From a virus (taxonomy: Duplodnaviria; Heunggongvirae; Uroviricota; Caudoviricetes), in the IMG/VR virus record IMGVR_UViG_3300009709_000001, positions 317,336-381,335 of that record: 64,000 nucleotides of DNA; one strand, written 5' to 3'. Shown piece by piece: positions 18,252 through 62,000 of the stretch. The notes beneath the pieces are model-generated. The model was not told the DNA's origin. It did no database searches and worked only from the letters and a program-made list of their open reading frames with translations. Every line of letters begins with the position of its first letter. The first letter of the stretch is position 1. A program made the position numbers and the translations under genes.

Positions 18252-18256
18252 TGTGT

Positions 18257-22710: not shown

Positions 22711-22806
22711 GTGTTCTCCAGTTGGCGGGGTTAAAATTGCGTTGTGTCTGTATTATGTCTGCATGCAACGAATGAGTCAAACGGCAAATGCAGGTACTTG
22801 GGGAAA

Positions 22807-24881: not shown

Positions 24882-24905
24882 GGTGACTTAGTCACCTTAT
24901 TTAGA
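24881..24905. terminator. bidirectional hairpin terminator between convergent genes
   Basis: AGGTGAC-TTA-GTCACCT followed by TATTT on the plus strand and UAUUUCUUUUU on the minus strand. Confidence 0.6.
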
Positions 24906-24921
24906 TTGACGTCAACTGGCT

Positions 24922-25545: not shown

Positions 25546-25585
25546 GGTTTTCCTTTCAGAACAAAGTTTTAACTGACAAATGCAT

Positions 25586-25608
25586 TATAGGGCCACCAGG
25601 GCCCTATA
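25586..25608 (-). terminator. GGGCC-core hairpin between GC-rich genes
   Basis: TATAGGGCC-ACCAG-GGCCCTATA, a 9-bp stem; it shares a GGGCC/GGCCC core with the hairpins at 26844 and 31341. Confidence 0.4.
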
Positions 25609-25641
25609 GTCAACTGAGTTTTACGTCAATTGGAACTGGTT

Positions 25642-26820: not shown

Positions 26821-26843
26821 GTGTAGCTCCTTGGGGGTGAAAA

Positions 26844-26865
26844 CTGGGGCCCCGAAGGGCCCCAG
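26844..26865 (-). terminator. GC-rich hairpin terminator/attenuator after AAA ATPase gene
   Basis: Minus-strand RNA: CUGGGGCCC-UUCG-GGGCCCCAG followed by UUUUCACCCCCAAGGAG(RBS)...AUG of the next gene. Confidence 0.5.
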
Positions 26866-26868
26866 GGG

Positions 26869-44727: not shown

Positions 44728-44924
44728 TTGATCTCGATTATAGATTCTTTCTTAATACATACCATATCTTGACTATGTGTCAAGATGGCGTAACCCTGCA
44801 GGTCGGTACACTGTCTTCTAAATTTTGAATAAGGACTATCCCTTAGGTCACCGCGTTCAGCACGAGCAAAGCTCAAGCCAGCCAGAATAAGAACTAACAA
44901 TAGAACACCGACTGCAGATTTCAT
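44724..44924 (-). CDS. small secreted protein (66 aa)
   Basis: Signal-like N-terminus AVGVLLLVLILAGLSFA. Confidence 0.35.
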   Translation of the reverse strand: MKSAVGVLLLVLILAGLSFARAERGDLRDSPYSKFRRQCTDLQGYAILTHSQDMVCIKKESIIEIK

Positions 44925-45976
44925 TATACATACCTAGATTTTAGCATTGGCATGAACTTCTCAGAGTGATTGCCAATTCTTTGCAGATCCCATTTACCAC
45001 AGAAGCGCATAAATCCCATACCAATCTCGATTGCCGGCACTGGTGGACGATTTACTGTTTCATTGATGATAGCTAAGCTCGATGCTTTAATATCTGCAGG
45101 GATTTCAGAAAGATCAATGAGCTTCTTATTCAGCTCGTATCTTTCTTTAACACGCTGCTCGACATCATTATGATCGACCCATTTCTGCAACATGAAATTG
45201 TTCCATGCGTATCCCTTACCATTCATGTCACCGTAGGCTTCGCGAATACCGACAGTAGTCTTGGTACCCTTTTCACGAACACCGGGATATGCACTGAAAA
45301 TGTTATCGGTATTATCACCACGAATGCACTTTAGGAACAATGCATATTCATACCATTTGTCTTCGCATACAAATGTCGGATCTTTCTTACCTACTTTAAT
45401 CTTCGCCTGGCTGGTAACAGTAAACGATAACTTATTGCCGTCATCGTCATATACACCATCTTGTTTGATCAGGATATCCTTAACCGGATCGTATAATGTT
45501 ACATTCGGGAAACGCAACAACTGGAAGAAGTCTGAATCTGAACTAACCAGAATGTGCTTATCATCTGGATGCGCTTCAATAAAGATTGCAATCATATCAT
45601 CAGCTTCGGCAACTGGATTGCGCAGAACTGTGATATTGGTCTTTGTTGATAAGAATTCAACGAAATCGTCAAATGCTTCCACCGCGATCATGTGATCTTC
45701 TTGTTCTTTCGGTGTCTGCTTGGCAAAGGTGACTGCTCTATTCAGTTTATATTCTGGATAGATATTCCTGCGCCAAGAACGACCTTCCATGTAAAACACG
45801 GTATGCGTACCACCCCACTTGTTATACTCCTTTTTCATGGAGTTAAAGATCATGTGGAGTGCCATACCGATAGCACTATCCAAACCCAACGAAGGGTTGG
45901 TCATATTAATCTGTCTATGAAACAGATTACTGCCGTCGGTATGAATAAAAACGTGTGGCTTTTTCTCTTCAGTCAT
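44924..45976 (-). CDS. rnh: RNase H / 5'-3' flap endonuclease (T4 rnh-like, FEN family)
   Basis: FEN/T4 RNase H motifs are present: 'VFIHTDGSNL', 'YPEYKLNRA', 'VAEADDMIAI' and 'ILVSSDSDFFQL'. A C-terminal helical DNA-binding region follows. Confidence 0.85.
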   Translation of the reverse strand: MTEEKKPHVFIHTDGSNLFHRQINMTNPSLGLDSAIGMALHMIFNSMKKEYNKWGGTHTVFYMEGRSWRRNIYPEYKLNRAVTFAKQTPKEQEDHMIAVEAFDDFVEFLSTKTNITVLRNPVAEADDMIAIFIEAHPDDKHILVSSDSDFFQLLRFPNVTLYDPVKDILIKQDGVYDDDGNKLSFTVTSQAKIKVGKKDPTFVCEDKWYEYALFLKCIRGDNTDNIFSAYPGVREKGTKTTVGIREAYGDMNGKGYAWNNFMLQKWVDHNDVEQRVKERYELNKKLIDLSEIPADIKASSLAIINETVNRPPVPAIEIGMGFMRFCGKWDLQRIGNHSEKFMPMLKSRYV

Positions 45977-46908: not shown

Positions 46909-47592
46909 TTGATAAATATATTTATGATCAATATTCATTTTTATAAAACATTTTTAGGTAACAAATACTCGAAATGGTATTTGTCTATTATTGTTGCTGC
47001 ACAATCGAAAAATCGTAAAAAATCCGAAGATTGCTATTACGAGCGTCATCATATTATACCCAAATCTATAAATCCTGAGATTTCGAACTTAAAATTAAAT
47101 CCCTGGAATGGAGTATTACTAACCGCGAAAGAGCATTTCATTTGTCATCTTCTTCTTACAAAAATGGCTATAGGAAAAGATAAGAATAAGATGATTTATG
47201 CATTATGGAATCTACGTAATCAGAAAACTAAATCTCAGGACCAGAGATTTACCTCAAATCTATACAACGTATACAAGAAACAGATGCAAGAAGCATTATC
47301 TGTAGATCGAAAAGGTAAATCTCTGGAAGAACGATACGGGATTACTCGTGCATCGGAGATTAAAGCATCCTACCGCACAAGAATCCCTCGTGGGAAAGTT
47401 TCCAATGAAGAAAAGGGTAAACTTTCTGAAAATATGAAAACTCTTCATCAAACCCGGCCTTGGAAAAGATTTATGCAAACCAACGGTGTTCTTCCAAAAA
47501 ATACCTGCCCGCATTGTAATAAAACAATGGATGTCGGTAATTATGGAAGATATCACGGGGACAAATGTAAATTACGCGAGATTAGCAAATAG
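46909..47592 (+). CDS. HNH homing endonuclease with C-terminal Zn finger (probable true start ATG 46924)
   Basis: 'CYYERHHIIPKSINPEISNLKLNPWNGVLLTAKEHFICHLLL'. The C-terminus is 'CPHCNKTMDVGNYGRYHGDKCK'. The ORF track starts at TTG 46909, but GATAAATA at 46911-46918 sits 5 nt before the ATG at 46924. Confidence 0.85.
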   Translation: MINIFMINIHFYKTFLGNKYSKWYLSIIVAAQSKNRKKSEDCYYERHHIIPKSINPEISNLKLNPWNGVLLTAKEHFICHLLLTKMAIGKDKNKMIYALWNLRNQKTKSQDQRFTSNLYNVYKKQMQEALSVDRKGKSLEERYGITRASEIKASYRTRIPRGKVSNEEKGKLSENMKTLHQTRPWKRFMQTNGVLPKNTCPHCNKTMDVGNYGRYHGDKCKLREISK

Positions 47593-48453
47593 ATGCATTT
47601 GCATTTGCATTCTGTAACCGTGCTCCATACAATATCTACCCACGTATTCGTGATTTTCTTGTATCTTCTGCATATTTAATAATCCCGGTTCGAAGAAATT
47701 AATAACTTCATCAACAGTTGAGCGCTCATCCATTGTGATATTGCCTTTTTCGTTGTGTAGAATTTTAATCTTCTGTGGAAGGCTGTTATACACATTCATC
47801 GGGCTAAGATATACTTCCTTAGTAGGATTATTTCTTTTCCACTCATGTGCCCATTCCGGAATTTGATTGTATGGGCTATCTGTTTCGGCACTAACGACAA
47901 ACTTCAAGCAATCTGCTCTTTCCAAAATTTGTTTGGTAGGAGAAAGATACTTAGTAGCCACACCATTCTTTTCAGCACATTTCGGGCTGCAAACGAGTGT
48001 AACACCTTCAGGAATAGGAAGATTTACAGTACCATTGCTTTCGATTTGTACTGCTCTGAAGTTAGGAACTTGTCTTTCTAGGAATGCTGTAAGGTTTGAT
48101 TGTAGTGTGGGTTCACCACCTGTAATAACCATAACAATGTTCGGGAAACTATATGCCTTCTTATCTGGATGTGCCCAAATAGGTGCTACACCACCTTTGT
48201 CTTCCCAATATTTATAGATCGTGTCACCTACCTTCTTTTCCAGTTCTTCATAAGTCATCCAATCTCCATCATCGAAGAATGTATCACAGAAAGAACAAGC
48301 TAGGTTACATTTTGTCAATCTAATGAATAGTGCAGGAGAACCGGCGTATGGACCCTCGCCTTGAAGTGTAAAGAACATACTTGTAACAAATAAACTATTC
48401 TCTGGTGCATCTTTGAAAAATTTCTGGCCAATAATTTGGTTAGTTCCGAACAT
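47572..48453 (-). CDS. queE: 7-carboxy-7-deazaguanine synthase QueE (radical SAM)
   Basis: 'FFTLQGEGPYAGSPALFIRLTKCNLACSFCDT' has the QueE C-x3-C-x2-C-DT cluster. 'VITGGEP' and 'QIESNG' are also present. The C-terminus 'MQMHLFANLA' resembles the E. coli QueE C-terminus. Confidence 0.9.
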   Translation of the reverse strand: MFGTNQIIGQKFFKDAPENSLFVTSMFFTLQGEGPYAGSPALFIRLTKCNLACSFCDTFFDDGDWMTYEELEKKVGDTIYKYWEDKGGVAPIWAHPDKKAYSFPNIVMVITGGEPTLQSNLTAFLERQVPNFRAVQIESNGTVNLPIPEGVTLVCSPKCAEKNGVATKYLSPTKQILERADCLKFVVSAETDSPYNQIPEWAHEWKRNNPTKEVYLSPMNVYNSLPQKIKILHNEKGNITMDERSTVDEVINFFEPGLLNMQKIQENHEYVGRYCMEHGYRMQMQMHLFANLA

Positions 48454-48985
48454 CTATTAATTCCTTCATTTCGTTTAGTGATAGAAATAACTTTTCACAG
48501 CTAAAACCATCTTTCTTATATTTGCTATTTTCTAAACACCAGCTTCTTATTGTTGTGTGATAAACACCGTAGAATTTGGCAGCGTGTTCTAGGGATGGAA
48601 ATTTTCCGTCTAGTGTGGTTACCAACATTTTCCATCCTTTTGCATCATCTCTGTCAATTTTGCCGAGAGAACACTCAACTTCTGGAACAACATATTCTCT
48701 AGAAAGGTAATTTATTGCACTTTGTAGAAGAGAAATATCATCCTTGAATAACCCGAGTGCGGTGTTGCAGTCAGTGCATAGTAGACCTCTGATTTTTCCA
48801 GATACATGATTATGATCAACTGCTAGATCTCTTCCGCAATAGTCGACTTGCTGGCAGATGCAACAGACACCATTTTGATCGGATTTTATTGCTTCATATT
48901 GATCGTAGTTTATTCCAAACTTCAAAAGAAGCCCATTTTTCTTTCTTCTTTTTTTAGATCTTTCCGGTGTATTAATTATTCCCAT
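48440..48985 (-). CDS. endonuclease VII-like Holliday-junction resolvase (T4 gp49 family)
   Basis: 'VCCICQQ...LAVDHNHVSGKIRGLLCTDCNTALG' matches the T4 EndoVII zinc/H-N-H core; an extra C-terminal domain follows. Confidence 0.88.
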   Translation of the reverse strand: MGIINTPERSKKRRKKNGLLLKFGINYDQYEAIKSDQNGVCCICQQVDYCGRDLAVDHNHVSGKIRGLLCTDCNTALGLFKDDISLLQSAINYLSREYVVPEVECSLGKIDRDDAKGWKMLVTTLDGKFPSLEHAAKFYGVYHTTIRSWCLENSKYKKDGFSCEKLFLSLNEMKELIDVRN

Positions 48986-49047
48986 AAAAATCTCCTTGTT
49001 TCTTATTTATACAAGGAGCTGGTAAACACTATAGAAATCTATAGTGT

Positions 49048-49629
49048 TTATTCATCGGTCCCTTTTAACTTTTCAATAATTTTAGAGGATTCCAGCATGA
49101 AAGTCAAGTCATCTGCTGTCAGGGCGCCTTTCTCCTTCGCAAACCGAATTACATCTTCAAAGACTTGATCTCGAATCTTACATTTCAGAGCGTGACTAAT
49201 ACCGAGTTTATTTTCGACACTAAAATTCAGCATCTTTTCAAATTGTCGGGATGCTTCATTGACATCTACTTCGGGCGCCCATTCGACTGATCCATCCTTA
49301 TTCAGACGAACAAGTTCTTTACCTGCGGCAGAATAGATTGTCAACAATGTCTTATCAGTTGCTGAGCTGCTGAATACATATGAAGAAGCTGGCGGAGACG
49401 CCGGCATTGTAAACCAACTCGACGAAACTCCTACGCCACCAGTAAGAATACCACTTGTGAACATTCCGCTGCTACTACCGGTAGTAGTGATCGAGCCCAT
49501 ATTAATTCCCGATGATCCTACTGCACCGACATTAGTCATTGGTGTTCCACTTGCATTACCTGTTGGTGCTGGTGGTACTACATTATTCAACGGAGTCTCT
49601 TGTCTTTTCTTAAAATATTTTTCAAACAT
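49048..49629 (-). CDS. hypothetical protein (193 aa) with Gly/Ser/Thr-rich N-terminal half
   Basis: Low-complexity G/S/T region, then a globular C-terminal domain. Confidence 0.5.
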   Translation of the reverse strand: MFEKYFKKRQETPLNNVVPPAPTGNASGTPMTNVGAVGSSGINMGSITTTGSSSGMFTSGILTGGVGVSSSWFTMPASPPASSYVFSSSATDKTLLTIYSAAGKELVRLNKDGSVEWAPEVDVNEASRQFEKMLNFSVENKLGISHALKCKIRDQVFEDVIRFAKEKGALTADDLTFMLESSKIIEKLKGTDE

Positions 49630-49913
49630 TATTCCTCCTTGCCAGCTGCCGGTCCATTAACCAGTGCTAGAATAGTTTGATATGCATCATATGCTTCCTT
49701 GAGTGCTGGATATTTCTCATGTAACTCAAGGTGCGGATGTAGAATTAGAAGCCGTGTCTCAATATTGCTGAGGCGTGCTTCTATTTGTGCAAGATTTTCT
49801 TGCGTCTTATCGGTTGTCGTTGTCCAATAAGCGGTTGTGCCTGTGCTGCCGCTCATCAGAACATTGCCAAGTGCACCGTAATTTGTCGGAAGTATTGAAT
49901 TTGTTGTACTCAT
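49629..49913 (-). CDS. hypothetical protein (94 aa)
   Basis: Minus-strand ORF. Confidence 0.4.
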   Translation of the reverse strand: MSTTNSILPTNYGALGNVLMSGSTGTTAYWTTTTDKTQENLAQIEARLSNIETRLLILHPHLELHEKYPALKEAYDAYQTILALVNGPAAGKEE

Positions 49914-50188
49914 TTTGAAAACCTTATTTTGAAAACTAATGCATCTTCAGGATTTTCAAAGCCCACGAAGACTATTACATTTCCGTGATTGCTGAGCACT
50001 TTCACATCTGCTGACCCCGACGTATTATCGTGGAGCCAGTAGAGCAATTCTAAATACATTTCCTGCTGATACGGAAACTTGATTATAGTTCTGAATTTTT
50101 CGTCGAAGTTAACCACTAATGGTTCCGGCTCCAGACTTACTGTCGGTTGCTTCCGGAACATATTCCAAAGTTGCGCCATTTTCCCCAT
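49910..50188 (-). CDS. hypothetical protein (92 aa), 'EDA-motif' family-like C-terminus
   Basis: Ends 'VIVFVGFENPEDALVFKIRFSK'; the start overlaps the QueD 3' end, so the true start may be internal. Confidence 0.45.
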   Translation of the reverse strand: MGKMAQLWNMFRKQPTVSLEPEPLVVNFDEKFRTIIKFPYQQEMYLELLYWLHDNTSGSADVKVLSNHGNVIVFVGFENPEDALVFKIRFSK

Positions 50189-50495
50189 CTTCGCTAACCT
50201 CTACGGAAATTTTACGATTTGGATAGGTCTTGCTGATGTAGTCAATTAAGTCTTCAGCAAGCATTTCGCAACTCTTGAAATCTACCTGCAATGTTGCTTC
50301 GGAATACAGAGCTTCGAGTTCTCTCTTAAATAGGATGAACTCGATATCCCTGTCATTGTGAAATACTTCCACTGTAACCCTGAAGTGGAAAATATGTCTG
50401 TGTGGATGTTTTAGAAATTCTACACCTTCTGGTGCATCGGGATACCTATGAATCCCTTCTTTCTGAAATGTTACGAAAATTGTCCGTGAAATCAT
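50109..50495 (-). CDS. queD: QueD-like 6-carboxy-5,6,7,8-tetrahydropterin synthase (PTPS family)
   Basis: 'FQKEGIHRYPDAPEGVEFLKHPHRHIFHFRV' parallels the E. coli QueD segment '[26 protein letters not shown]'; 128 aa. Confidence 0.75.
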   Translation of the reverse strand: MISRTIFVTFQKEGIHRYPDAPEGVEFLKHPHRHIFHFRVTVEVFHNDRDIEFILFKRELEALYSEATLQVDFKSCEMLAEDLIDYISKTYPNRKISVEVSEDGENGATLEYVPEATDSKSGAGTISG

Positions 50496-50701
50496 TTTAT
50501 TCTTTTTGTCTTAACCTTATACCTAGATTTGAATTCCATCTTCTTTAATTTCCGATAGTATTCTTCGAAAGTATATGGTCGAAAAATCATTGCCGCACCA
50601 ACTGGTGCAAAGCTTGTCTTGTCTTCATGCCACAGAGAAACTAAGCGTCCACTTAGTTTCTCTATGATATATAACTTCTCTGCTTCGGCACGAGTTGTCA
50701 T
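50492..50701 (-). CDS. hypothetical protein (69 aa)
   Basis: Minus-strand small ORF. Confidence 0.35.
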   Translation of the reverse strand: MTTRAEAEKLYIIEKLSGRLVSLWHEDKTSFAPVGAAMIFRPYTFEEYYRKLKKMEFKSRYKVKTKRIK

Positions 50702-51583
50702 TTACTTCTTCTTAGATGCCGCCTTTTTCGCACCCGATTCTTGGGTTTCGGTCGTGCCATCTGCATGAGCATAGAGATCAGCGACTTCCTGCTTCGTCGA
50801 GCTTCCTTGCGAAAGAACAACTTCACTCTTGACTTCTTCATCCGCTTCAGCCTTTAGTTGAGAAGGTGAGGTTGGGTCAAGGCCGAGAGATGCATCGTTC
50901 TGCACGGGTGTCTCGGCCTTCTCAACAGCCTTAACCTGCTTTGCGATCAAATCACTCGGATCGATGTAAGTAATCTCTCGTTCTGGCTCCTTGCGAACAA
51001 CATATGGAGGCATCGGTGTAGGTAATACATCATGAGACGGTGATGCAGAGATATTAACCTGACCGGTAACATCTTCATCAGTCACATAATCTTGCCAATC
51101 AGTGAAACGATTGCTGTCGGTTAATTCAGTGAAATGCCTGCACCATACACCTGGATTAGTTGCCTTGAAATCAATATCATCGATCTTAACCGTTAGATTA
51201 GGACTAGACATTTCGATCTTAGGAATACGAACACTGAGCAAGGGCACGAATAAACGAGATTGCCATACACCAGCACTGAAGATGTTTAAGACATCCTTAT
51301 GTTGATGTGCCTGATAATCGATTGTTACCCAAAAACCACGATCGAGCAAGTGTGTTGCAAGATCATTCCAATTCTTGTTTTCGACATCAGAATTTGCCTC
51401 AACATCAAATGAATGATTTGCGCCAAGGAATACATGCTGTACCTTATATTGGCGAGCATATTTTTCCACTTCTTGTGGACTCTGATATCCGACTACAAAG
51501 AGTGTCTTTTTCGAGTATGCCGGAGTATGTTCAACTTCCGGTCCAATGAAATATTTTGTTTTTTCGTGTCCTGCTCTATTCAT
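50702..51583 (-). CDS. hypothetical protein (293 aa): Rossmann-like N-domain plus acidic/Lys-rich disordered tail
   Basis: 'KTLFVVGYQSPQEVEKYARQYKVQHVFLGANHSFD' is an alpha/beta-like segment. The last ~100 aa are low-complexity E/K/S/T-rich. It sits between QueD and the glycosyltransferase-like gene. Confidence 0.55.
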   Translation of the reverse strand: MNRAGHEKTKYFIGPEVEHTPAYSKKTLFVVGYQSPQEVEKYARQYKVQHVFLGANHSFDVEANSDVENKNWNDLATHLLDRGFWVTIDYQAHQHKDVLNIFSAGVWQSRLFVPLLSVRIPKIEMSSPNLTVKIDDIDFKATNPGVWCRHFTELTDSNRFTDWQDYVTDEDVTGQVNISASPSHDVLPTPMPPYVVRKEPEREITYIDPSDLIAKQVKAVEKAETPVQNDASLGLDPTSPSQLKAEADEEVKSEVVLSQGSSTKQEVADLYAHADGTTETQESGAKKAASKKK

Positions 51584-51592
51584 AATTTCCTT

Positions 51593-52807
51593 TTAGTATT
51601 TTTCGCGGCCGACGTGCTTTCTATAATCTAGTCCGTTTCGTGCCCACTGTGCGCCGTTACCCTTTTCGCCACCCTCAAGGATATCGATGGTACGGTCAAT
51701 TGTTCCATTCTGCCAATCGCTGACTGCACCAGTTGTAAACTTTGCAGGATTGTTCAGCATTGCGGTTAGCTTTGCTGCGGCATCATCTAAGCTCCACGGA
51801 ATATACAAGTTATTCGCATTATTTGCGAACACTTCCGGGAAACTACGATAAGCTGGGAACAAGGTCAGTGTTCCAAATGTGTCGGCTTCGCTAACAGTGT
51901 TACTTACCCAATCTTGAAGGGCACAGTTGAATAAAACGACACTGTCTGCGACAATTTCGTAATAATCGTTCTTCTTCAGACCGGTATAGACCTTGAAATT
52001 AGCAGTTCCGCTAGATTCCAGGTATTTCGCAAACTCGATGTTTTGCGGATTGTTGCTCTTCAATTCAGGATGTCCAGTCACTACCGCAAATTCCACATCA
52101 GGGTGTGTCTTGAACATTTTCTGTGCGAGCTGCATATAGAAGTCGGGTTGCTTCTCATCATCCCAACGAGCTGCAAACACGACACGTTGTTCACGCGAGG
52201 TAATTGGCTTGATGTACTCAACACGTTCAAGCACTTCTTCTTTGCCAAACGGAAGACCAGTAACATAGATAGGTGCCTTGAATCCTGCGATACGCAGATT
52301 AGCAACCATTTCTTCACTTGCCACAAGGATGCCCGATACAAATTCGTCGATCATCAACTCATAGTTACGCATCCAATGACCCATTCCTTCGCGGTTAACG
52401 AAATCATCGGGATCAATGGATTGTGCAAGACAACGAACATAAACCTTCGGACGATACTTCTTAGGCACCTGGTCCATGATGTACGGTAAACATTCAATGC
52501 CTGGAGTAAACATATCTTCGTAGAAGATAACGTCATTACTTGTGACTTTACCTTCCTTCATCAGCTTGATCAGATTTGCAGTCTGCATCATGCTGTAATA
52601 TGTTCGACCGTGTGCATCAAGTACACTACCGGTAACAATGTTCTTGTCGGCAGTTAATTCTGCACCTTTGACAATCTCGTAGTCGATGCCACGAGCTTGA
52701 AATACACGTTCATTCCAGTCTTGGAGTTGCAGTGTGTATCGAGCTTCGTATGCTTCCAAGCCCATATAGAACAGTTTTTTCATAGGTCTTCCTTGTTGAT
52801 TCCCCAT
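51593..52807 (-). CDS. putative GT-B fold glycosyltransferase (possibly a DNA glycosyltransferase)
   Basis: The 404-aa protein starts 'MKKLFYMGLEAYEARYTLQLQDWNERVFQARGIDYEIV', resembling the N-terminal strand of T-even phage DNA glucosyltransferases (recalled from memory, not verified). Its C-terminal half has a GT-B-like pattern. Confidence 0.5.
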   Translation of the reverse strand: MGNQQGRPMKKLFYMGLEAYEARYTLQLQDWNERVFQARGIDYEIVKGAELTADKNIVTGSVLDAHGRTYYSMMQTANLIKLMKEGKVTSNDVIFYEDMFTPGIECLPYIMDQVPKKYRPKVYVRCLAQSIDPDDFVNREGMGHWMRNYELMIDEFVSGILVASEEMVANLRIAGFKAPIYVTGLPFGKEEVLERVEYIKPITSREQRVVFAARWDDEKQPDFYMQLAQKMFKTHPDVEFAVVTGHPELKSNNPQNIEFAKYLESSGTANFKVYTGLKKNDYYEIVADSVVLFNCALQDWVSNTVSEADTFGTLTLFPAYRSFPEVFANNANNLYIPWSLDDAAAKLTAMLNNPAKFTTGAVSDWQNGTIDRTIDILEGGEKGNGAQWARNGLDYRKHVGREKY

Positions 52808-53151
52808 TTTACTTTAAGTGTATGTATATCGTCAAAGGGGCCAGTCATTGGCTGCACTCCGAGAAGTTCATCGGCAATAATGTTAGGCATAATTCGATTA
52901 ATCATTGGAATTCTTATACCCTTAGGCTTTGGAGGGGCCTTAAGTTTTTCGATAATCTTTTCAGCCTCAATTTCCTCTGTTGTCATACCCGCAAGACGCA
53001 ATTCTTCTGCAGCCTCTGCATCAATCTTTTCGGCAAAAATCCTGGCTTGTTCTTCCAGCATATACTTGACGATATCATTATTACTACTGGTAATCGAATC
53101 TATTAATTCTTTCTTGGATTCGTTCCAGTTTTCGAATAATTTCTTTGTCAT
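52780..53151 (-). CDS. hypothetical protein (123 aa)
   Basis: Minus-strand ORF. Confidence 0.45.
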   Translation of the reverse strand: MTKKLFENWNESKKELIDSITSSNNDIVKYMLEEQARIFAEKIDAEAAEELRLAGMTTEEIEAEKIIEKLKAPPKPKGIRIPMINRIMPNIIADELLGVQPMTGPFDDIHTLKVKWGINKEDL

Positions 53152-53432
53152 TTCGACATTCTCAATACATAGGCCACGGCATCGGGTCCGTCGAGTTTAA
53201 TTGACGCGTCGCTATAAATCTGATATCCTGCCTCGGGCATCCAACCATAGCCAGACTTGGCAAGTGGCTTTACCTTGATTGTTTTCGGACTAATTGTAGT
53301 GACCTTGCTGACGATTAATTGGTTTTGTCTAGCAAATGCTACTGTATCGCCTAATTTTAGTTCAGTACCTAGAAGATCTTTTTGGACTAACGGTTCTTTC
53401 TTTTTTCTTGTTGTTTTTATTTCTTCAGTCAC
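53148..53432 (-). CDS. hypothetical protein (94 aa)
   Basis: Minus-strand ORF. Confidence 0.45.
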   Translation of the reverse strand: MTEEIKTTRKKKEPLVQKDLLGTELKLGDTVAFARQNQLIVSKVTTISPKTIKVKPLAKSGYGWMPEAGYQIYSDASIKLDGPDAVAYVLRMSK

Positions 53433-53445
53433 TTACCTACTTTCC

Positions 53446-53913
53446 TTAAATCCAGGTACCCTCTCTCGATACCTTGTTATCAATACCTGCCAATTTATTC
53501 ATCGTTTTTTGCTGATTTGCAAATTCAGTTTCTTGATCGATGCGCTTCTTTAGATATGTTCTAATCACGTCACGATGATACCAAATGAATTCTTCATATT
53601 TGGATAGACCATTACATGGACAACACAATACGAAATTAATGCCATTGATAATACGACCTGATACTGCATCGCTGTCGTAATGCAAGATCACTTTATCAGG
53701 ACTTTCTTTATATCGAAACTCGCAATGTTCTGCCCAGTTCTTTTCATCTTCTTCGTCACACTCAGACCAACCCCAATCGACATTGACGCACAAATGTTCA
53801 CGTCCGCACCAATTGCAATCCATCTGATAAGAACCGTGGCCAGGTTCTGCTTCACGGCAGGCATCTAAAAAAAGCTCCGTTGGAGCTTTTGGGCAATCTT
53901 TAGGATTTTTCAT
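53446..53913 (-). CDS. Cys-rich putative zinc-binding protein (155 aa)
   Basis: Multiple Cys pairs (DCNWCGREHLC, CPCNG, HCEF). Confidence 0.45.
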   Translation of the reverse strand: MKNPKDCPKAPTELFLDACREAEPGHGSYQMDCNWCGREHLCVNVDWGWSECDEEDEKNWAEHCEFRYKESPDKVILHYDSDAVSGRIINGINFVLCCPCNGLSKYEEFIWYHRDVIRTYLKKRIDQETEFANQQKTMNKLAGIDNKVSREGTWI

Positions 53914-54145
53914 GTCCGTCCTTTATAATATCGAATATAGTGCTCTTATACTCGTATTCAGTCGCAAAGAATATCTTGTTCATGATCATATCAAATCTTG
54001 TCCAATAGGGTTGATGAACTTGTTTTCTTAGTACAAATTCTAACCAAACTGTTTCTTTGTCATTGATCTTAACTGGATGCCAAGCAAACCAGCGGTGCCA
54101 TACTAAGCGTGGATTTTCTGACGGATTATAAACTTTCCATCTCAT
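53900..54145 (-). CDS. hypothetical protein (81 aa)
   Basis: Minus-strand ORF; Trp-rich. Confidence 0.4.
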   Translation of the reverse strand: MRWKVYNPSENPRLVWHRWFAWHPVKINDKETVWLEFVLRKQVHQPYWTRFDMIMNKIFFATEYEYKSTIFDIIKDGHEKS

Positions 54146-54978
54146 GGTTCAAAGTCCTTTGCCTGCTCGTGTGTTCTTTTAAAGCCGGATGCAGTCTTGT
54201 GGCCACCGCCTCCAAAGATTTCGGCAATCTCAGCAACATTCATACCTTCTGCAGTCGAACGTAGACCAAATTCTCTATGTGTGGCAGTGTCGTAATAATA
54301 CGCTGCGAAAGGCTCGTTTTTCGCCAAAATTGAGCAAATATCAGAACCAAACTGATAGGGAACGTTAGCAGCTGGAACATTAAACCCTGCAATATTCAGA
54401 CGTCTAACGACAACGCCAAGTAATTCCTTGACATTTTTCATGTTGGCACGCTCGATAGCTGTACCATCTCTGATTTGCTCTTCAATGCTTTGTTCCGCAA
54501 TCATGTCCCAGTTTTCGAAGTTGTATTCGTAGCTGAAAATGCTCGCGTTGACTTCACGGCAGCCCGGAATTAAAAACTTCCAACGATCCCTATCATCGAC
54601 ATAGCGGATAAACGGTGGAACTTCTAGATCCTTGAAGAAATACTTCCAAGCCAGCATTGCACCGCTTTCAGTATTCTTTGGACTGTAGAAAGATTCGAAT
54701 TTAGGATCCGAAAAACCTTCCATGTCACGAATTGCTGTTTCGTGATGGTCAATGTGAATAACCTGTTTTGCGTCACGAACAATTTGTTCCATGATCGGAC
54801 GCTTATAGCTGAAGTCGACGATGTAGACAATCTTGTCTTTTACATCAGGCGGCTCTTCTTTGTAGACGCCAGGATGATATACAATACTTTCATCCTTGCC
54901 GTGTGCTGCTCTGACTACCCATGCAGCAGTAAATCCATCAATGCATTTGCCGTGATAGATACATACAATTCCACTCAT
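54142..54978 (-). CDS. DHH/DHHA1-family phosphoesterase (NrnA-like)
   Basis: 'CIYHGKCIDGFTAAW' (DHH motif I/II region), 'IHIDHHE' (DHH motif) and 'GGGGHKTASGF' (DHHA1 GGGH motif). Confidence 0.72.
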   Translation of the reverse strand: MSGIVCIYHGKCIDGFTAAWVVRAAHGKDESIVYHPGVYKEEPPDVKDKIVYIVDFSYKRPIMEQIVRDAKQVIHIDHHETAIRDMEGFSDPKFESFYSPKNTESGAMLAWKYFFKDLEVPPFIRYVDDRDRWKFLIPGCREVNASIFSYEYNFENWDMIAEQSIEEQIRDGTAIERANMKNVKELLGVVVRRLNIAGFNVPAANVPYQFGSDICSILAKNEPFAAYYYDTATHREFGLRSTAEGMNVAEIAEIFGGGGHKTASGFKRTHEQAKDFEP

Positions 54979-55175
54979 TTGTTCCCGGCTCCGTGGCTCT
55001 GTGCGATAAACGCCTTCAACTCAGCTTCATGTGCCCTCATGAATTGCTCAGCGATAAGAAGGGAAATTCCGGTGGTTCCACCGATTACCTTCGTTGCTAT
55101 ATGTGCTTCTTGCGCTTCTTGCAGGGCGGTAAACACCTCCCCTACAGTTAGCGGATATTGAGCTAGATTTCTCAT
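54975..55175 (-). CDS. hypothetical protein (66 aa)
   Basis: Minus-strand small ORF. Confidence 0.35.
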   Translation of the reverse strand: MRNLAQYPLTVGEVFTALQEAQEAHIATKVIGGTTGISLLIAEQFMRAHEAELKAFIAQSHGAGNK

Positions 55176-55477
55176 TTCTTTCCTTTGTGTCGAACCCGTG
55201 ATTCGCGCCTAATCTTTTTCGGCATAACATAAAAGTCGGGTTTCATACCAGAAATTAGAGAATGAGAATAAATCATCCCGTTCATCATACCATGCATGTA
55301 CTGGGAGGGTTCACTTGCGGAGGACTGTAAACAATCCTCCTGTATGCCCATCATTTCCTCTAATTTTTTCAGGCGCTTTTGCAGCTCGTCATTCATCGAT
55401 CTTAGAATGATCATCTTGACCTTGATCTGCCATTTCTTCACCAGATGGTGTTTCAGCACGATGGCCATCGATATCAC
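55172..55477 (-). CDS. hypothetical protein (101 aa)
   Basis: Minus-strand ORF; overlaps the DpdA 3' end, so the start may be internal. Confidence 0.4.
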   Translation of the reverse strand: MISMAIVLKHHLVKKWQIKVKMIILRSMNDELQKRLKKLEEMMGIQEDCLQSSASEPSQYMHGMMNGMIYSHSLISGMKPDFYVMPKKIRRESRVRHKGKK

Positions 55478-56954
55478 CCCACATTACTGTGTTGGTCATT
55501 GTAGTAGTGGTTTTCTTATCGCCAAAACTTACAAAGTCGAGGAATTTCTGATTCTCTGCCAACATATTGTAAGGGTCTTTGTTGGAAGGGTCAAGTAATT
55601 CCTCAACAAAGGAGTTGAAATACAAAATTGAGTTTGGAACAAAGTTACTAATCGGTGTACTGCTCTTTTTATCACCGGGGCGATAATCTTTCCAACTAAT
55701 TTTAGGCTTCAAAATATATTCGATGTCTGCAAGACGATTAATTTCTTGCACAGCCTGAATATGATTGTATACATTATGTGCCATGACAAGAGCATAAGTG
55801 GTTGTATCCCAACTTGTCTTGCCTTCTTTGCCATGCTTGTTCAAATCGCCGGGCCCCATCACACACATATCAGATGCGTATAATCTTTCCATAATCGGTC
55901 CTTGGAACGGCATTGCAATTTTCTTATCTTTCAAATCCTTGCTATCAATGCCCCTGCCCATCGCATAGGTAAGTTGATCGGGTTTGAAATAATTGTAATT
56001 GTAGGAGAGTGCATAACCACCAGCCGCAACAAAAGGTGATGCAGCGTCGAAGCTGATATTGATATTAGGATTATCGTATTTCTTCAACAGACGCTCGATA
56101 CTAGACAAATAACATGCCCAATCTAAACGACCAATACCCAGAAAGTGAATCCAATCTTTACCCTCTAACAGTCCATCTCTGCGCAAGTCAAGAATACGTT
56201 CAAGAACAGTTTTCATGTTCTTCATGTTGATACCTGCAAATGCCCAACCTTCTAATGTTCTATCCTTGGAATAGCCCATAGCTTCAACACTCGATGGAAT
56301 ACTGAAGTGTTTTACTGTTTCATACCAATCACGAGAATTGCTATTATCACTACCCGAAAGAACATTAAGAAACTTAGTTGCTCCCGGAACCCGATTCTTC
56401 ATGAAATAATGCAAATTGTATTCGGTAACATCCAGACAGTCCTGAAACTTAGTAAGTCCAGTTTTTGCACTCAATGGTGGAAGAGCAGCAAATGCCGGCA
56501 CGTCCAATGTCATTGACCAATCAGCAGTATGTTCTAGGTAACGTAGAATTTCTTCACGTAGCTTATCACCTGCGTCTGTCATGACTGTTGACCAATCAAG
56601 CTTAATAACGCCGGTTGCAATCTGGAAGCCGCCAGAGTCGCCAATCAGTACGGTGTCATCTCCACGCTTGTGAATCATCGGTTCACGATCGTCACAACGT
56701 GATAAATTTCTATCAGCATGTCCTGCTGAATACAAACCCCACTTGTAGTGAAAATAACTATCTTCTGATTTTAGGAAATCGAGTCCTTGAATACCATATT
56801 CAAATTTTTCAGGCACACGTTCTTTCGGTACAAAGTTCTCGTCTGCAAGATCTTTACCGAGATGAGTGGTATAAAAACCACTAATGGCGGGAAGGTATTT
56901 TGCCCAACCGCCTTCGATATGTCTTTCGGTAAAATCTACTCTATTTTTTGTCAT
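55389..56954 (-). CDS. dpdA: DpdA-like 7-deazaguanine DNA transglycosylase (tRNA-guanine transglycosylase superfamily)
   Basis: 'VLIGDSGGFQIATGVI' is the TGT catalytic DSGGFQ motif. 'WSMTLDVP', 'EGWAFAGI', 'HFLGIGRLDWACYL' and 'ISFDAASPF' line up with TGT core segments. It has no C-terminal Zn-binding CxCxxC...H, as in phage DpdA. Confidence 0.85.
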   Translation of the reverse strand: MTKNRVDFTERHIEGGWAKYLPAISGFYTTHLGKDLADENFVPKERVPEKFEYGIQGLDFLKSEDSYFHYKWGLYSAGHADRNLSRCDDREPMIHKRGDDTVLIGDSGGFQIATGVIKLDWSTVMTDAGDKLREEILRYLEHTADWSMTLDVPAFAALPPLSAKTGLTKFQDCLDVTEYNLHYFMKNRVPGATKFLNVLSGSDNSNSRDWYETVKHFSIPSSVEAMGYSKDRTLEGWAFAGINMKNMKTVLERILDLRRDGLLEGKDWIHFLGIGRLDWACYLSSIERLLKKYDNPNINISFDAASPFVAAGGYALSYNYNYFKPDQLTYAMGRGIDSKDLKDKKIAMPFQGPIMERLYASDMCVMGPGDLNKHGKEGKTSWDTTTYALVMAHNVYNHIQAVQEINRLADIEYILKPKISWKDYRPGDKKSSTPISNFVPNSILYFNSFVEELLDPSNKDPYNMLAENQKFLDFVSFGDKKTTTTMTNTVMWGDIDGHRAETPSGEEMADQGQDDHSKIDE

Positions 56955-58199: not shown

Positions 58200-61151
58200 T
58201 CAAAACGCGCTGAAGTCGAATAATGTTTCAAGGTGTGCGTGTTCTTTATTAGTTCTCGAAAGATCCCAATTCAAAACACCTAGAAGATTCTTAACCTTCT
58301 GATCGACAATCGAACCCATCATTTCATCACTGTCAAATGGGAGGTTCAAGAACCAATCTGGTAAATGGGCTTCATCAACCGGATATGCAATGCTACTCAA
58401 ATTGTTTTCGGCATTGATCTTGAGTTTACAAACAATAATCTTCTGTCCGTCAATAATCCTCATTGCATGCTGGTCACGATGAATTTCTTTCAATCGATTC
58501 CACGCAAGGCTTGCTGTAACGTGTCCTGGTACATGCAAGTTACCGACTGTAATACCTTTTGCTTTCTGAATACCTGCAAGTTCAATCTTATCACGATAGT
58601 GAGTTAGCTTGTTAACTGCTCGCGGAGTTCCTTGTTTCCAAGGCTTCAAATCTTCAAACTGTTCTTTAAACAGGCGAATTTTCTCAATAACGGCATTTTC
58701 GCCCTTGTCTAGTAGAGTATCAAGTAAGATCTCAGACAAGAATTTTTGCACGAATTTAGGTGTATCTGCACGCTTCAAATCGAGACCCATAGCCTTGACT
58801 TTACCCGGCTTTCCGTCGACATCATATCTAATGCCGTCCTTATCGTACATCAAGCAAGCATATCTCTTCTTAACAATCCAAATACCTGTTTCGGACACAG
58901 TTTCACGAGACGATGCAATAACACCAGTCGAACGCTTTTGTGGCACATTCAATTTCTTGTTCAAGAACTCGGGGAATGTAGCAGAAACTGCTTTTGCCAA
59001 ATCATTGTAAAGATCGACAATGCTTTCCTTTGTCCACATAATATCACCACGTGCAATTTCTTCACGTAGAATTGGATATGCAGAGAAATAGCACGAGTCC
59101 GTATCACCATAAACAATTGCCTTGCCGTAATGATTATATTCACCAGCAATCATTTCATTTGTCTGAGCTGCCATGTGCTTCGTGATTGTACGACCAGTAA
59201 GCGTTGTGGATTGTCCTAGACGTTGATCGAAGAATCGACTACCTGCATTCAACAAAGCGCCGTATGCCGAGTTCAAGTTAATCTTCTTAACGAGCTGACG
59301 TTTGTCCCAGAAGCCAACAATACGCTTCAAATCCTTTTGATCGCGATGAATTGCTTTACCGTCCTTGACCATAAGGTTGTGTTGATTCATGTACTGAACA
59401 ACTCTCTTCTTATGACCTTCGGCGATAATTTCCTTCAGTTTCTTCGGCTTGTACGATTCCGATTCTGAATAGGGATTAGCCTTCAATTCTACATCACTGA
59501 TATCATCATTTGTGAACAATTCTGCCGGAACTAGAGTACCTTCAATTTTGGAGTTATCCTGAATGTCTTCATAGTTGGTCATAATACCTTGAAGCGTCTT
59601 ACGCTCGGTATACCAACGTGTCAGAATTCCCGGAATAATACCGTCAATATCTGTTCTAAAGATTGTACCGTTTGCACTGATACACCATGGCTGTCCACTC
59701 TTGAAAATCAAGTCATGCAATTCCTTGCCAGTGACTTCAAATTCAGAGCCGTCTTCCATATCAAGAGTTAGCTTATTGGCAATATCTTGATTATAAAAGT
59801 CTTCCATTTCTAGAACGTTGAATCTATCGTTCCACCAGTTAGCGAATGTGTATTTCGCACCTTTCTTTTCCCAAATGCCGATTGCATCGTTTGTACGATC
59901 TAGACGAATCTGTCCAACAATTGTTTCTGGACTCATATTCAGTGCTCTAAGAACCGACGGATACAGAGACTTCATGTCAGTTGAACCAATCCAGCGATGG
60001 AATCCCTTTCTTGGAGTTGCAACCCAGCCACCTGCAGCACGATTTGCTTCTTCGTCGCTACCACGCTTCTTATCTGGACAGATAAGTCCGCGATTGTGTG
60101 CTTCGACAAGTACAGCCTGGTCAGTAACTGCAACCGCACCCATTGTGGTCTGAATTAGAACACAGTTGGCATGTGCAATCGAATTTGCAAGATCCATGAA
60201 CTGGAGCTTCTTATCTAATCGATCAAGAAGTCGCGTATCCTGGATGTTATACTGTAAGAACTGCTCAAAGTCGTCATTGTAGAGTTCGTCAAGCGTACCT
60301 TCGTATTGTACCTTAGTTTCGTTAAGTTCAATTTCCGAGATAGCATTCAACGCATAACTATGTCTTTCTTCATAGTTGTATTTCTTGTAAAGCTGAAGAT
60401 AATCAACGTGAACACGACCAATAAGGTCGTAAGTTGGTTGAGTCTTGCCGCCGCGTTCAAATTCACGAACTTTAGGTTGCTGGTCCCACAGACAAAGTCT
60501 GCGAGCTTCATGCTTACCAAGAACACGCTTGATACGATTTACAACATAAGGAATATCGTATGCTTCACTATTCCATCCACTAAGAATGTCTGCATCTTCG
60601 ACAACGTCAATGAATGCATTAAGCATGTCTGCTTCGTTCTTGAATAGAACTACATTACCTACCTTATTTGCAATTTCATTAGCTTCATCCCAGGTCAATG
60701 TCTCTGGTGGCAATGCCAAGCAGATAATTTCATCTAGCCATTGCAGATGAACAGAAATTGAAGTGATGTAATTTAGTGCTTCGCTTGCTTCTGACCAGCC
60801 CGACTCTTTATCAAAGCTGGTTTCAATGTCGAAGAATGCAATGTTAAGGGAAGGAGCATCTTGCCCCTGATAATTGTGTTCAATACAGCGGAAGATTGGA
60901 TCTACATCCGATTCCCATGTTTTCGTATTGCTTGCCACAGTTTTCATTAGCTTCTGCTTTTCAGCATAGGTGCGTGGCGCTACCTTTTTTACGGAATTAC
61001 CGTAGATGGTCTTATTAAGACCCTTCGGGTCATTAATGAAGAAGTGATAGTCAGGTTGGAATTCCCGGTAAACTCTCTTACCGTTAACACGTTCAACAAT
61101 TTTGATTACTTCGCTATCACCGCCTCTTTTGAACAAGGCGTCAATATACAT
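58200..61151 (-). CDS. family B DNA polymerase (T4 gp43-like) with 3'-5' exonuclease domain
   Basis: Exo I motif 'IAFFDIETSF', polymerase motif C 'VYGDTDSCYF', motif A-like 'MKSLYPSV'; 983 aa. Confidence 0.95.
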   Translation of the reverse strand: MYIDALFKRGGDSEVIKIVERVNGKRVYREFQPDYHFFINDPKGLNKTIYGNSVKKVAPRTYAEKQKLMKTVASNTKTWESDVDPIFRCIEHNYQGQDAPSLNIAFFDIETSFDKESGWSEASEALNYITSISVHLQWLDEIICLALPPETLTWDEANEIANKVGNVVLFKNEADMLNAFIDVVEDADILSGWNSEAYDIPYVVNRIKRVLGKHEARRLCLWDQQPKVREFERGGKTQPTYDLIGRVHVDYLQLYKKYNYEERHSYALNAISEIELNETKVQYEGTLDELYNDDFEQFLQYNIQDTRLLDRLDKKLQFMDLANSIAHANCVLIQTTMGAVAVTDQAVLVEAHNRGLICPDKKRGSDEEANRAAGGWVATPRKGFHRWIGSTDMKSLYPSVLRALNMSPETIVGQIRLDRTNDAIGIWEKKGAKYTFANWWNDRFNVLEMEDFYNQDIANKLTLDMEDGSEFEVTGKELHDLIFKSGQPWCISANGTIFRTDIDGIIPGILTRWYTERKTLQGIMTNYEDIQDNSKIEGTLVPAELFTNDDISDVELKANPYSESESYKPKKLKEIIAEGHKKRVVQYMNQHNLMVKDGKAIHRDQKDLKRIVGFWDKRQLVKKINLNSAYGALLNAGSRFFDQRLGQSTTLTGRTITKHMAAQTNEMIAGEYNHYGKAIVYGDTDSCYFSAYPILREEIARGDIMWTKESIVDLYNDLAKAVSATFPEFLNKKLNVPQKRSTGVIASSRETVSETGIWIVKKRYACLMYDKDGIRYDVDGKPGKVKAMGLDLKRADTPKFVQKFLSEILLDTLLDKGENAVIEKIRLFKEQFEDLKPWKQGTPRAVNKLTHYRDKIELAGIQKAKGITVGNLHVPGHVTASLAWNRLKEIHRDQHAMRIIDGQKIIVCKLKINAENNLSSIAYPVDEAHLPDWFLNLPFDSDEMMGSIVDQKVKNLLGVLNWDLSRTNKEHAHLETLFDFSAF

Positions 61152-61402
61152 TAGCCGAGACCTCCAGCCTTGTATAGTTCTTCAAGTTCGTCCCAATCTT
61201 CACGGGCGTCATTCATTCGACCCTTTTGAACGATCTTGATTAGCTTATTCAACTGTGCTGGTTTGACTTCTAGTTCCTCGGCGATTGCCTTCACTGTTTC
61301 ATTGAGACCTTGCTTCAGGTCTTCGCATTCCTGAAGAACTGATACACCATCTTGAACGAGTTGTTTCAGACGTGTGATATTTTCTTGGCTAAGTTTCGCC
61401 AT
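61151..61402 (-). CDS. hypothetical protein (83 aa)
   Basis: Minus-strand ORF immediately upstream of the pol gene; helical, charged. Confidence 0.45.
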
Positions 61403-62000
61403 TTTTATTTTTCTCCTGCTCTAATTTTCTTTTAGCCCATCGCTCTTTCATCGATGCACTCTGTTTCATTTTTGCTTCAGGCGTCTGTGGTTGTCCCTTA
61501 TTATAAGGCACTCTACCAGACATATTCTTACTCATTGATTCTTTTGCGGATTCTGTGTGTTTGCGACCCAACATCGGGTGCTGCAATTTAGATCTTGCTT
61601 CGGTTGCTTTTTCATAAACCCAGTCGGGTTGTCTTTTGCCGAAAAATGAGCTATTTTCACCAGAGTGTTGCTGTCTTAATTTTTCTCTAATTTCCGGTGT
61701 TTTAGCATCAGACATTTTCTGTTTGGTTTCAGCAGTATGTTTTCTTCCCGAGGCGCCTTCACCACCGTCGGTTAAATTTCTAAGAATACCTGTTCCGATA
61801 TCTTTTCTGCCATACCAACGAATATATCTTCGTTCTAGTGCAAATGCACCTATTTCTGTAAGATTAGACTCGAGTATAATAATCCGAAATTTATCCGGTG
61901 GGACATTTACAGTATGTCGACCGAGAAATCTTTTACCTGATCCTTTACCGATATAATAAGGAGTATTATCTACTCTAAGATAAGCGTAAACATAGAACAT
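61389..62000 (-). CDS. GIY-YIG homing endonuclease with NUMOD3 repeats
   Basis: '[25 protein letters not shown]' is a GIY-YIG core, followed by '[15 protein letters not shown]' NUMOD3-like repeats. Confidence 0.85.

Follow-up and report, generated by a model that had tools for sequence, protein, structure and literature searches.

To our knowledge, none of the eight derivatives of 7-deazaguanine described in phage DNA carries a sugar. One of these, 2′-deoxy-7-deazaguanine (dDG), has been measured only in Cellulophaga phage phiST and two of its close relatives. Here, we describe a set of minus-strand genes, encoding QueE, DpdL, a DpdA-like transglycosylase and a glycosyltransferase (GT), in a 64,000-nt stretch of DNA (positions 317,336 to 381,335 of the IMG/VR virus record IMGVR_UViG_3300009709_000001), the whole of which we call the window. 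Our preferred explanation, held with about even confidence, is that these genes form a DpdL-type 7-deazaguanine DNA-modification module with a dedicated GT. Such a module would be a variant of the phiST-type dDG system, distinguished by a family of transglycosylases that had gone unrecognised and by two additional conserved partners, the GT among them.

The described systems closest to this locus are those with DpdL, the proposed decarboxylase of 7-carboxy-7-deazaguanine (CDG), which is defined by the replacement of the CxxxHGH motif of QueD by LxxxHRHxF (Cui et al. 2023, PMC10516641). The dpdL genes named so far are CGPG_00067 of phiST and one gene of Acidovorax phage ACP17; as a published rule, phages with DpdL have FolE, QueD and QueE and lack QueC (PMC10516641). 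In E. coli, dpdL and dpdA of ACP17 gave no dDG, and the authors suggest that other enzymes may be needed (PMC10516641). The DNA of Pseudomonas jumbo phage PA5oct (Wroclawvirus) resists several restriction enzymes, which its authors read as a sign of modified guanine.

DpdL, QueE and a long DpdA-like protein

In a preliminary description of this DNA, one gene of the set had been read as queD. Judged by its sequence, its 128-aa product is DpdL, a paralogue of QueD, and not QueD itself. It reads L28-K-H-P-H32-R-H34-I-F36, the LxxxHRHxF motif, and has no CxxxHGH; the zinc histidines are kept, and the position of the catalytic cysteine of QueD is not a cysteine. The match to E. coli QueD is weak (E = 0.015, residues 1–62) and Pfam PTPS does not match the protein at all, and it is 50% identical to ACP17 gp125 (E = 3e-33) and 38% identical to phiST CGPG_00067 (E = 9e-13). 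Across nine family members compared, LxxxH[RF]HxF is present in all nine and CxxxHGH in none.

This assignment changes the expected pathway, as DpdL would turn CDG into 7-deazaguanine and not into preQ0, so that QueC is not expected and the preQ0 route proposed in the preliminary description no longer holds. A scan of IMG/VR with a DpdL alignment returned at least 598 loci, and the counts given here come from the best 80 of them. QueC occurs in none of these 80 loci and QueF in one, whereas FolE is found in 56, QueE in 41 and canonical QueD in 33. The absence of QueC from the window is thus explained by a type of module that, in these loci, never has it. Within the 64-kb window, searches for FolE, QueC, canonical QueD, QueF, GalE and a phosphoribosyltransferase found none of them. 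That QueC and FolE are missing had been seen correctly; the idea that QueC would be encoded elsewhere or come from the host fell with the count above. FolE and canonical QueD, not being in the window, would therefore be encoded elsewhere in the 385-kb genome or be supplied by the host.

The radical SAM protein of the set is, from its motifs and homology, QueE (CDG synthase), as had been proposed. It carries the cysteine cluster C49x3C53x2C56 together with TLQGEG and GGEP, matches E. coli QueE (PDB 6nhl) with an E-value of 5.4e-15 (matches to QueE structures in the PDB range from 5e-15 to 2e-7), and is 39% identical to the QueE of ACP17. Five NCBIfam QueE models rank top for this protein, all under their equivalog cutoffs (TIGR04322, 4e-22).

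The transglycosylase is more divergent. Its AlphaFold model (pLDDT 80, pTM 0.84) returns a tRNA-guanine transglycosylase (TGT) as the first-ranked Foldseek match (E = 4.8e-5), which points to a TGT-type TIM-barrel fold. Five motifs are invariant in its family and follow the same order as in E. coli Tgt: DSGGFQ (first residue 106; DSGGFQ at 89 in Tgt), LDVP (150; FDEC at 142), GWAFAG (236; GYAVGG at 209), FLGIG (271; LMGVG at 243) and FDAAS (302; FDCV at 263). D106 (in DSGGFQ), D151 and D303 (in SFDAAS) are invariant in 19 family members and are collinear with D89, D143 and D264 of E. coli Tgt, the correspondence being one of motif order. The DSGGFQ-bearing DpdA homologue of the preliminary description is therewith supported by its motif and its predicted TGT/DpdA-like fold. 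That description had made its case depend on intact catalytic residues in QueE and DpdA, and the catalytic motifs of both proteins are intact.

Family models do not recognise this protein. It has no match in Pfam (PF01702 TGT, PF20314 DUF6610/DpdA4), nor in NCBIfam or PADLOC, the latter two also at relaxed E-values, and no TGT was matched in the PDB by a single-sequence search or by a profile of 19 sequences. Published DpdA3 members likewise miss the Pfam models. The family has more than 3,800 members, and of 120 listed members none carries a Pfam domain. Comparison by hhalign with the single sequences of E. coli Tgt and 9g DpdA1 was uninformative, and tblastn with E. coli Tgt for phage DpdA returned bacterial-type tgt genes only. 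With hhalign, the family matches ACP17 gp123 (81%, E = 1.3e-5) and, weakly, phiST DpdA3 (CGPG_00065; 38%), at lengths of 521 aa versus 259–424 aa; it could be either a long DpdA3 branch or a subfamily of its own. Compared with bacterial DpdA (the DNA preQ0 insertase, PDB 7ui4) and with TGTs, the protein shows 17% identity, no sequence-profile or family-model match, no zinc Cys/His motif and about 130 extra C-terminal residues, and its substrate is likely 7-deazaguanine rather than preQ0.

Gene neighbourhoods speak to its function as well. In Vibrio phage 2.275.O (MG592671; locus L011, 11824–21209), a distant homologue lies directly upstream of QueF, a YhhQ-type transporter, QueC, an amidotransferase-like gene, FolE and QueE, and this neighbourhood is therefore independent evidence that the family works on 7-deazaguanines; there, the long DpdA family appears with a full preQ1-type pathway, without DpdL or GT. 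FolE and QueE stand beside the DpdA-like gene in the metagenomic locus L017, and QueE and DpdL do so in the window. QueE, DpdL and the DpdA-like protein together uphold the proposal of a 7-deazaguanine DNA-modification module; the earlier observation was largely right, and it was the pathway assignment (QueD, preQ0 and a missing QueC) that was wrong.

The window is part of an uncultured jumbo phage related to PA5oct. The GT and a 293-aa protein encoded in the module have 100%-identical database proteins from one contig of 385,394 bp, and the window therefore belongs to a jumbo phage. An identical copy of the 293-aa protein came from JGI sample 3300010188 and Logan run SRR5829574. Megablast of the 9.4-kb region against GenBank phages gave no match. 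All seven open reading frames (ORFs) that had been noted are present on the minus strand at the positions first reported, and they recur in related long metagenomic phage contigs with 47–88% protein identity and in the same order, and are therefore real genes, not chance ORFs. The module region (47.5–57 kb) is embedded in a minus-strand replication and nucleotide-metabolism block (Table 1).

Relative to phiST, the window shares the DpdL motif (at the 38% identity given above), QueE, the lack of QueC, and a TGT-superfamily transglycosylase beside the polymerase gene (PMC10516641); phiST also shares a MazG-like module gene with close relatives of the window phage. Unlike the window, phiST lacks both a GT4-like gene and a homologue of the 293-aa protein, its DpdA3 has 259 aa as against the 521-aa family, and its FolE and QueD genes, which are absent from the window, are adjacent.

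A glycosyltransferase beside dpdL

The GT-B glycosyltransferase-like gene of the preliminary description is, judged with its homologues, probably just that. The protein matches Pfam Glycos_transf_1 (PF00534) below threshold (1.9e-4, 21.4–21.5 bits versus a cutoff of 26.4). Its homologue in Synechococcus phage BUCT-ZZ01 (57% identity) passes for both Glycos_transf_1 (26.5 versus 26.4) and Glyco_trans_1_4 (28.3 versus 27), and several metagenomic homologues with 74–78% identity were already annotated with PF00534. All 19 sequences compared, that of PA5oct among them, keep R206, E210-K-Q-P213 and E299; the second glutamate of the usual EX7E pair is not conserved. A profile search of the PDB gave weak matches, to polysaccharide GT4 enzymes only. 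Translation probably begins at M9 (52783), which makes a protein of 396 aa, in agreement with the 100%-identical database protein P0121 and with the gene call in locus L008. Just upstream of the GT gene lies a 123-aa ORF that resembles only the N-terminal part of the T4-type major head protein gp23 (phrog_138, 1e-10; the gene calls for L003 and L008 list Pfam Gp23).

What ties the GT to 7-deazaguanine is its position. Of the 80 loci, 57 have a GT gene no more than 10 kb from dpdL, as do 21 of the 25 with full flanks; the median gap is 265 bp, and the two genes share a strand in each of the 57. Both types of DpdA accompany the pair (41 loci with the long type and 12 with the ACP17/BUCT/phiST type); DpdA itself is present in 64 of the 80 loci and in 23 of the 25 with full flanks. 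Among 50,697 GenBank phage records, 29 have DpdL, 23 have the GT and 18 have both, where 0.013 would be expected (Fisher p = 1.5e-57), records that are not independent of one another, about 6 of 13 DpdL lineages having the GT. The six cultured lineages with both genes are the PA5oct group, Phosso, ACP17, BUCT-ZZ01, Xanthomonas X1/BUDD and Burkholderia BCSR5. In Phosso the two genes are 3 bp apart, and in Xanthomonas X1/BUDD and Burkholderia BCSR5 the distance is 1.5–2.8 kb. The GT model had no other match in 246 kb of other phage DNA. We conclude that the GT is a regular member of the DpdL-type module and not an interloper.

Individual loci illustrate how compact this arrangement can be. The order in ACP17 is QueD, FolE, gp122 (a homologue of the 293-aa protein), gp123 (DpdA), gp124 (GT), gp125 (DpdL) and gp126 (QueE). 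In BUCT-ZZ01, the cluster consists of QueE, a phosphoribosyltransferase, QueD, FolE, a second GT-like gene, DpdA and DpdL, with the GT directly after dpdL and no homologue of the 293-aa protein. The DpdA of both phages has about 420 aa as against 521 aa in the window, and the genes missing from the window are present there: FolE and QueD in ACP17, and these two and the phosphoribosyltransferase in BUCT-ZZ01. L017 encodes, in order, the long DpdA, a 170-aa homologue of the 293-aa protein, DpdL, the GT (64% identity), a GalE-like protein, a phosphoribosyltransferase, FolE and QueE.

In PA5oct, EST35_0316–0322 are syntenic with the window (polymerase, structural protein, DpdA-like protein, GT, DpdL, QueE and RNase H), with the GT homologue (EST35_0317) flanked immediately by the DpdA-like gene and dpdL. 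Identities to the window are 52% for the DpdA-like protein, 52% for DpdL and 23–28% for the GT, with 42–52% for the block overall. PA5oct differs from the window in that its homologue of the 293-aa protein is about 27 kb away from the module, its QueE belongs to another subtype, the DHH and Cys-rich genes of the window are absent, and two further genes are present, one phosphoribosyltransferase-like (0321) and one short and epimerase-like (0320).

Two further enzymes recur in these modules. A UDP-hexose epimerase, GalE (TIGR01179, 291 bits versus a cutoff of 262), is encoded inside the module in L002 (16882–17850), L004 (18431–19402) and L017 (10355–11317), and is found in 20 of the 80 loci, 16 of which also have the GT; its place inside the module argues that the GT uses a UDP-hexose. 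The epimerase-like gene of PA5oct (EST35_0320; L001, 18392–18910; 172 aa; E = 1.3e-9) looks like a short N-terminal GalE remnant or a paralogue. A PF00156 type I phosphoribosyltransferase occurs in 28 of the 80 loci, among them L017 (11314–11778), BUCT-ZZ01 (L016, 4093–4554), where it is annotated as a xanthine-guanine phosphoribosyltransferase, and PA5oct (L001, 18922–19356). In the simplest explanation, this enzyme may recycle the guanine freed by base exchange.

The second GT-like gene of BUCT-ZZ01 (UTS52035; L016, 6010–7353) differs from the first, matches Glyco_trans_1_4 at 3.4e-5 and has relatives in 3 of the 80 loci; a second such gene in the cluster would fit a disaccharide or alternative sugars. 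Partial homologues of the GT (21–24% identity) are also found, together with a canonical QueD, in the Xanthomonas and Erwinia jumbo phages PhiXhv-12, PhiXhv-15, PhiXhv-16, Ep026 and Ep032 (about 227–229 kb), in which tblastn found no DpdL and the GT homologue and QueD are far apart. Three candidate homologues of the GT or the 293-aa protein (Vibrio phage gene _469, BUCT-ZZ01 UTS52031 and phiST CGPG_00066) were rejected by hhalign.

The second extra partner is the 293-aa protein, which occurs together with the long DpdA and is most likely a partner of it. Its N-terminal domain is followed by a disordered, variable tail (50702–51058) with the conserved motifs NDxSLGLDP..LKPE and AEAYAEG..DPL and a Lys-rich end, short motifs through which the tail could dock onto another protein. 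When 1.8 billion representatives were searched with a profile of the 293-aa protein, only further unannotated family members came back, and a diverse alignment gave nothing credible against Pfam and PDB profiles; a match to SDR with an E-value of 0.009 was judged to be chance.

The product of the module and competing explanations

The proposed pathway would begin with the conversion of GTP to CPH4 by FolE and QueD, encoded outside the window or supplied by the host. QueE, identified by homology, would then make CDG, and DpdL, if it performs the reaction published for its family, would remove the carboxyl group to leave 7-deazaguanine. The long DpdA-like protein would swap this base for guanine in the phage DNA after replication, and the GT4-like enzyme, as its gene linkage suggests, may transfer a hexose from what is probably a UDP-sugar donor; the acceptor would be 7-deazaguanine or one of its derivatives, within the DNA or still as the free base before insertion. 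The outcome would be restriction-resistant DNA. With moderate confidence, we consider a glycosylated deazaguanine the most likely product in phages that carry the GT. That the GT belongs to the module, as had been suggested, is borne out by its linkage; the sugar on the base goes further than linkage does, and the default product, dDG, lies within the described set of derivatives, not outside it. DpdL has the same residues at its conserved positions in loci with and without the GT, and presumably therefore catalyses the same reaction in both, the GT acting additionally; a GT-linked change in the DpdL reaction was considered and rejected on the same comparison.

There is precedent for such a step. 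T4-type DNA glucosyltransferases, which are GT-B enzymes acting on 5-hydroxymethylcytosine in DNA, place a hexose on a modified base, and the animal queuosine glycosyltransferases, likewise GT-B, transfer a hexose onto a 7-deazaguanine derivative in a nucleic acid. Unlike the window GT, with which they share no detected sequence similarity, both use acceptors with a hydroxyl. 7-Deazaguanine offers no hydroxyl for a sugar, and O-glycosylation would therefore need a further, unseen step, or else the bond would be at C7/C8, N2 or O6. The GT could thus place its sugar on a ring atom (C7/C8), act after an unseen step that installs an acceptor, or have a different target altogether. The electron-rich C7 (or C8) left after DpdL is the one site that guanine does not offer, which makes a carbon–carbon bond to a sugar possible. 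We think it unlikely, though worth stating, that the hexose is joined directly to the 7-deazaguanine ring by such a bond or sits on a 7-substituent made by an unrecognised enzyme, for example the 293-aa protein. If true, a C–C-joined hexose would be the first C-glycosylated nucleobase in natural DNA, and since the module is common in environmental jumbo phages, it would be a widespread new DNA form.

Several points weigh against a dedicated DNA-modifying GT in a DpdL pathway, the missing hydroxyl being one of them. Percentages drawn from the 80 loci are biased, since these loci are the ones closest to the query. The DpdA-like protein lacks the TGT zinc motif CxCxxC..H and has only four cysteines (87, 173, 281 and 364), and the 64-kb window has no GalE, FolE or QueD. 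The GT is acidic (pI 5.3), has no detectable similarity to known DNA glycosyltransferases and no PHROG match, and GT4 enzymes are usually builders of polysaccharides. Finally, decarboxylation of CDG by DpdL is itself a published proposal only (PMC10516641), and phiST, in which dDG was measured, does not have this GT, which is therefore not needed for dDG itself; tblastn with the GT family returned no Cellulophaga phage record, and none was found in the phiST locus.

Some of these points lead to a different explanation, which we consider possible but on balance doubtful: the module makes plain dDG as in phiST, leaving the final DNA base without a sugar, and the GT is linked for another reason, for instance to glycosylate proteins, host structures or a small-molecule intermediate, or in a structural or scaffolding part beside DpdL or DpdA. 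dDG is the sole product measured for a phage with DpdL, the base has no obvious acceptor hydroxyl, the acidic GT resembles polysaccharide GT4 enzymes (weakly), and DpdL occurs without this GT in 12 well-flanked loci and about seven cultured lineages. Such a role is harder to reconcile with the adjacency of the GT and dpdL, which is very tight, never involves opposite strands and is seen with two DpdA subtypes and in distant phage families, with the location of the GT in a replication and nucleotide-metabolism block that runs from polymerase to RNase H, with the invariance of the nucleotide-sugar-binding residues R206, K211 and E299, and with the recruitment of a UDP-hexose epimerase to the same module. 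An entry of the modified base before replication is very unlikely in our view: here, 7-deazaguanine or its sugar-bearing form would be incorporated as a nucleotide through a phage phosphoribosyltransferase and the polymerase, leaving the DpdA-like protein a different or minor role. The phosphoribosyltransferase in the modules of L017, BUCT-ZZ01 and PA5oct, and in 28 of the 80 loci overall, would provide the means, but the window has no such gene, DpdA keeps its catalytic aspartates and is nearly constant in well-flanked loci (23 of 25; 64 of 80 overall), and the transferase is more simply read as salvaging released guanine to GMP and GTP, the pathway precursor.

We give next to no credence to the scheme of the preliminary description, in which FolE, QueD, QueE and QueC make preQ0 (QueC and FolE being host-derived or encoded elsewhere), which is then inserted by DpdA and modified further by the extra genes. 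In favour of this scheme, the window does have QueE and a protein of QueD fold, a distant member of the DpdA-like family in Vibrio phage 2.275.O adjoins QueC, QueF and FolE, and the search for QueC covered a 64-kb window of a 385-kb genome. Yet the QueD-fold protein has the DpdL motif in place of the catalytic cysteine of QueD, QueC is absent from 80 of 80 loci with QueF in only one, and the published rule for DpdL phages likewise leaves out QueC (PMC10516641).

A literature search, which was not exhaustive, found no glycosylated 7-deazaguanine in phage DNA and no link between DpdL and a glycosyltransferase. A GT4-like gene, often accompanied by a UDP-hexose epimerase, is regularly part of the DpdL-type module, which itself was found on no fewer than 598 viral contigs and also in phages in culture, among them PA5oct, a therapy candidate; thousands of metagenomic proteins belong to the GT and DpdA-like families. 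No current model detects the large DpdA-like family, and surveys that use a DpdA signature therefore miss it. The failed attempt to rebuild dDG from dpdL and dpdA may reflect missing partners, for which the GT and the 293-aa protein are candidates. The predicted product also bears on the escape of these phages from restriction enzymes and on recognition by modification-sensing nucleases.

Neighbouring genes and other features of the window

The preliminary description had counted four interleaved genes as a possible extension of the pathway. Two of them, the GT and the 293-aa protein, are the conserved partners described above. The other two, a DHH phosphoesterase and a Cys-rich ORF, were identified correctly but do not share this conservation. 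The DHH gene is found in 3 of the 80 DpdL loci (present in L002) and the Cys-rich gene in 4 of 80 (about 50% identical in L002 and L004); DHH is absent from L004, and both are absent from L017, PA5oct and ACP17. Given this rarity, they are unlikely to be core components, and they are probably specific to the close relatives of the window phage and lie outside the pathway.

Mobile genes have left their mark on the region. In the window, the interval between dpdL and queE holds an endonuclease VII-type gene, inserted between module genes and probably mobile, and in the relatives L002 and L004 it holds GalE and MazG-like genes. At least 10 HNH, NUMOD3 or endonuclease VII-type genes are found in the window, two of which flank queE (Table 1). 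In PA5oct a homing endonuclease splits the gene for the polymerase, and in L017 this gene has an intein-like insert.

Table 1. Features of the window, with gene products named by homology
Feature	Position	Strand	Remarks
Family-B DNA polymerase	58200–61151	−	one end of the block; intact here
250-aa structural protein	between polymerase and module genes	−	
DpdA-like DNA-guanine transglycosylase, 521 aa	55389–56954	−	long divergent TGT-superfamily family
DHH/DHHA1 phosphoesterase, 278 aa	54142–54978	−	phrog_4771, 1.8e-87; weak Pfam DHH/DHHA1 matches
Cys-rich protein, 155 aa	53446–53913	−	10 Cys; no family match
123-aa ORF, gp23-like N-terminal part	52780–53151	−	
GT4-like (GT-B) glycosyltransferase, 396 aa from M9	51593–52783 (ORF to 52807)	−	start at M9 probable
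293-aa protein	50702–51583	−	conserved N-domain of about 170 aa of an unnamed family plus disordered tail
DpdL (QueD paralogue), 128 aa	50109–50495	−	LxxxHRHxF; phrog_17812, 1.3e-33
Endonuclease VII-type gene	48440–48985	−	Pfam Endonuclease_7, 7e-22; probably mobile
QueE, radical SAM, 293 aa	47572–48453	−	phrog_2076, 4.7e-54
HNH homing endonuclease	46909–47592	+	phrog_655, 1.6e-37; abuts queE 3′ end
RNase H/5′-3′ exonuclease	44924–45976	−	other end of the block
Further HNH/NUMOD3/endonuclease VII-type genes	927–1637, 12687–13223, 14903–15472, 15697–16305, 24129–24881, 28365–29192, 36881–37558, 61389–62000		
RtcB RNA ligase	35619–36884	−	Pfam, 6e-129
D-alanyl-D-alanine carboxypeptidase	8546–9346	−	Peptidase_S11, 7.5e-33
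tRNA-like gene	1685–1760	−	Rfam, 35 bits; not found by ARAGORN

Elsewhere, the window encodes an RtcB RNA ligase, a D-alanyl-D-alanine carboxypeptidase and a tRNA-like gene. Its G+C content is about 41%, apart from islands of 52–63% at 18200–19400, 21800–23000, 24800–27800 and 31400–32600. The conserved phage genes in these islands encode a DUF2201 metallopeptidase/VWA protein, a MoxR-like AAA ATPase, phrog_19575, an unknown 392-aa ORF, an ATPase (phrog_2376) and phrog_11908, and between the islands lie endonuclease-type genes of 31–39% G+C and a DUF7487 gene.

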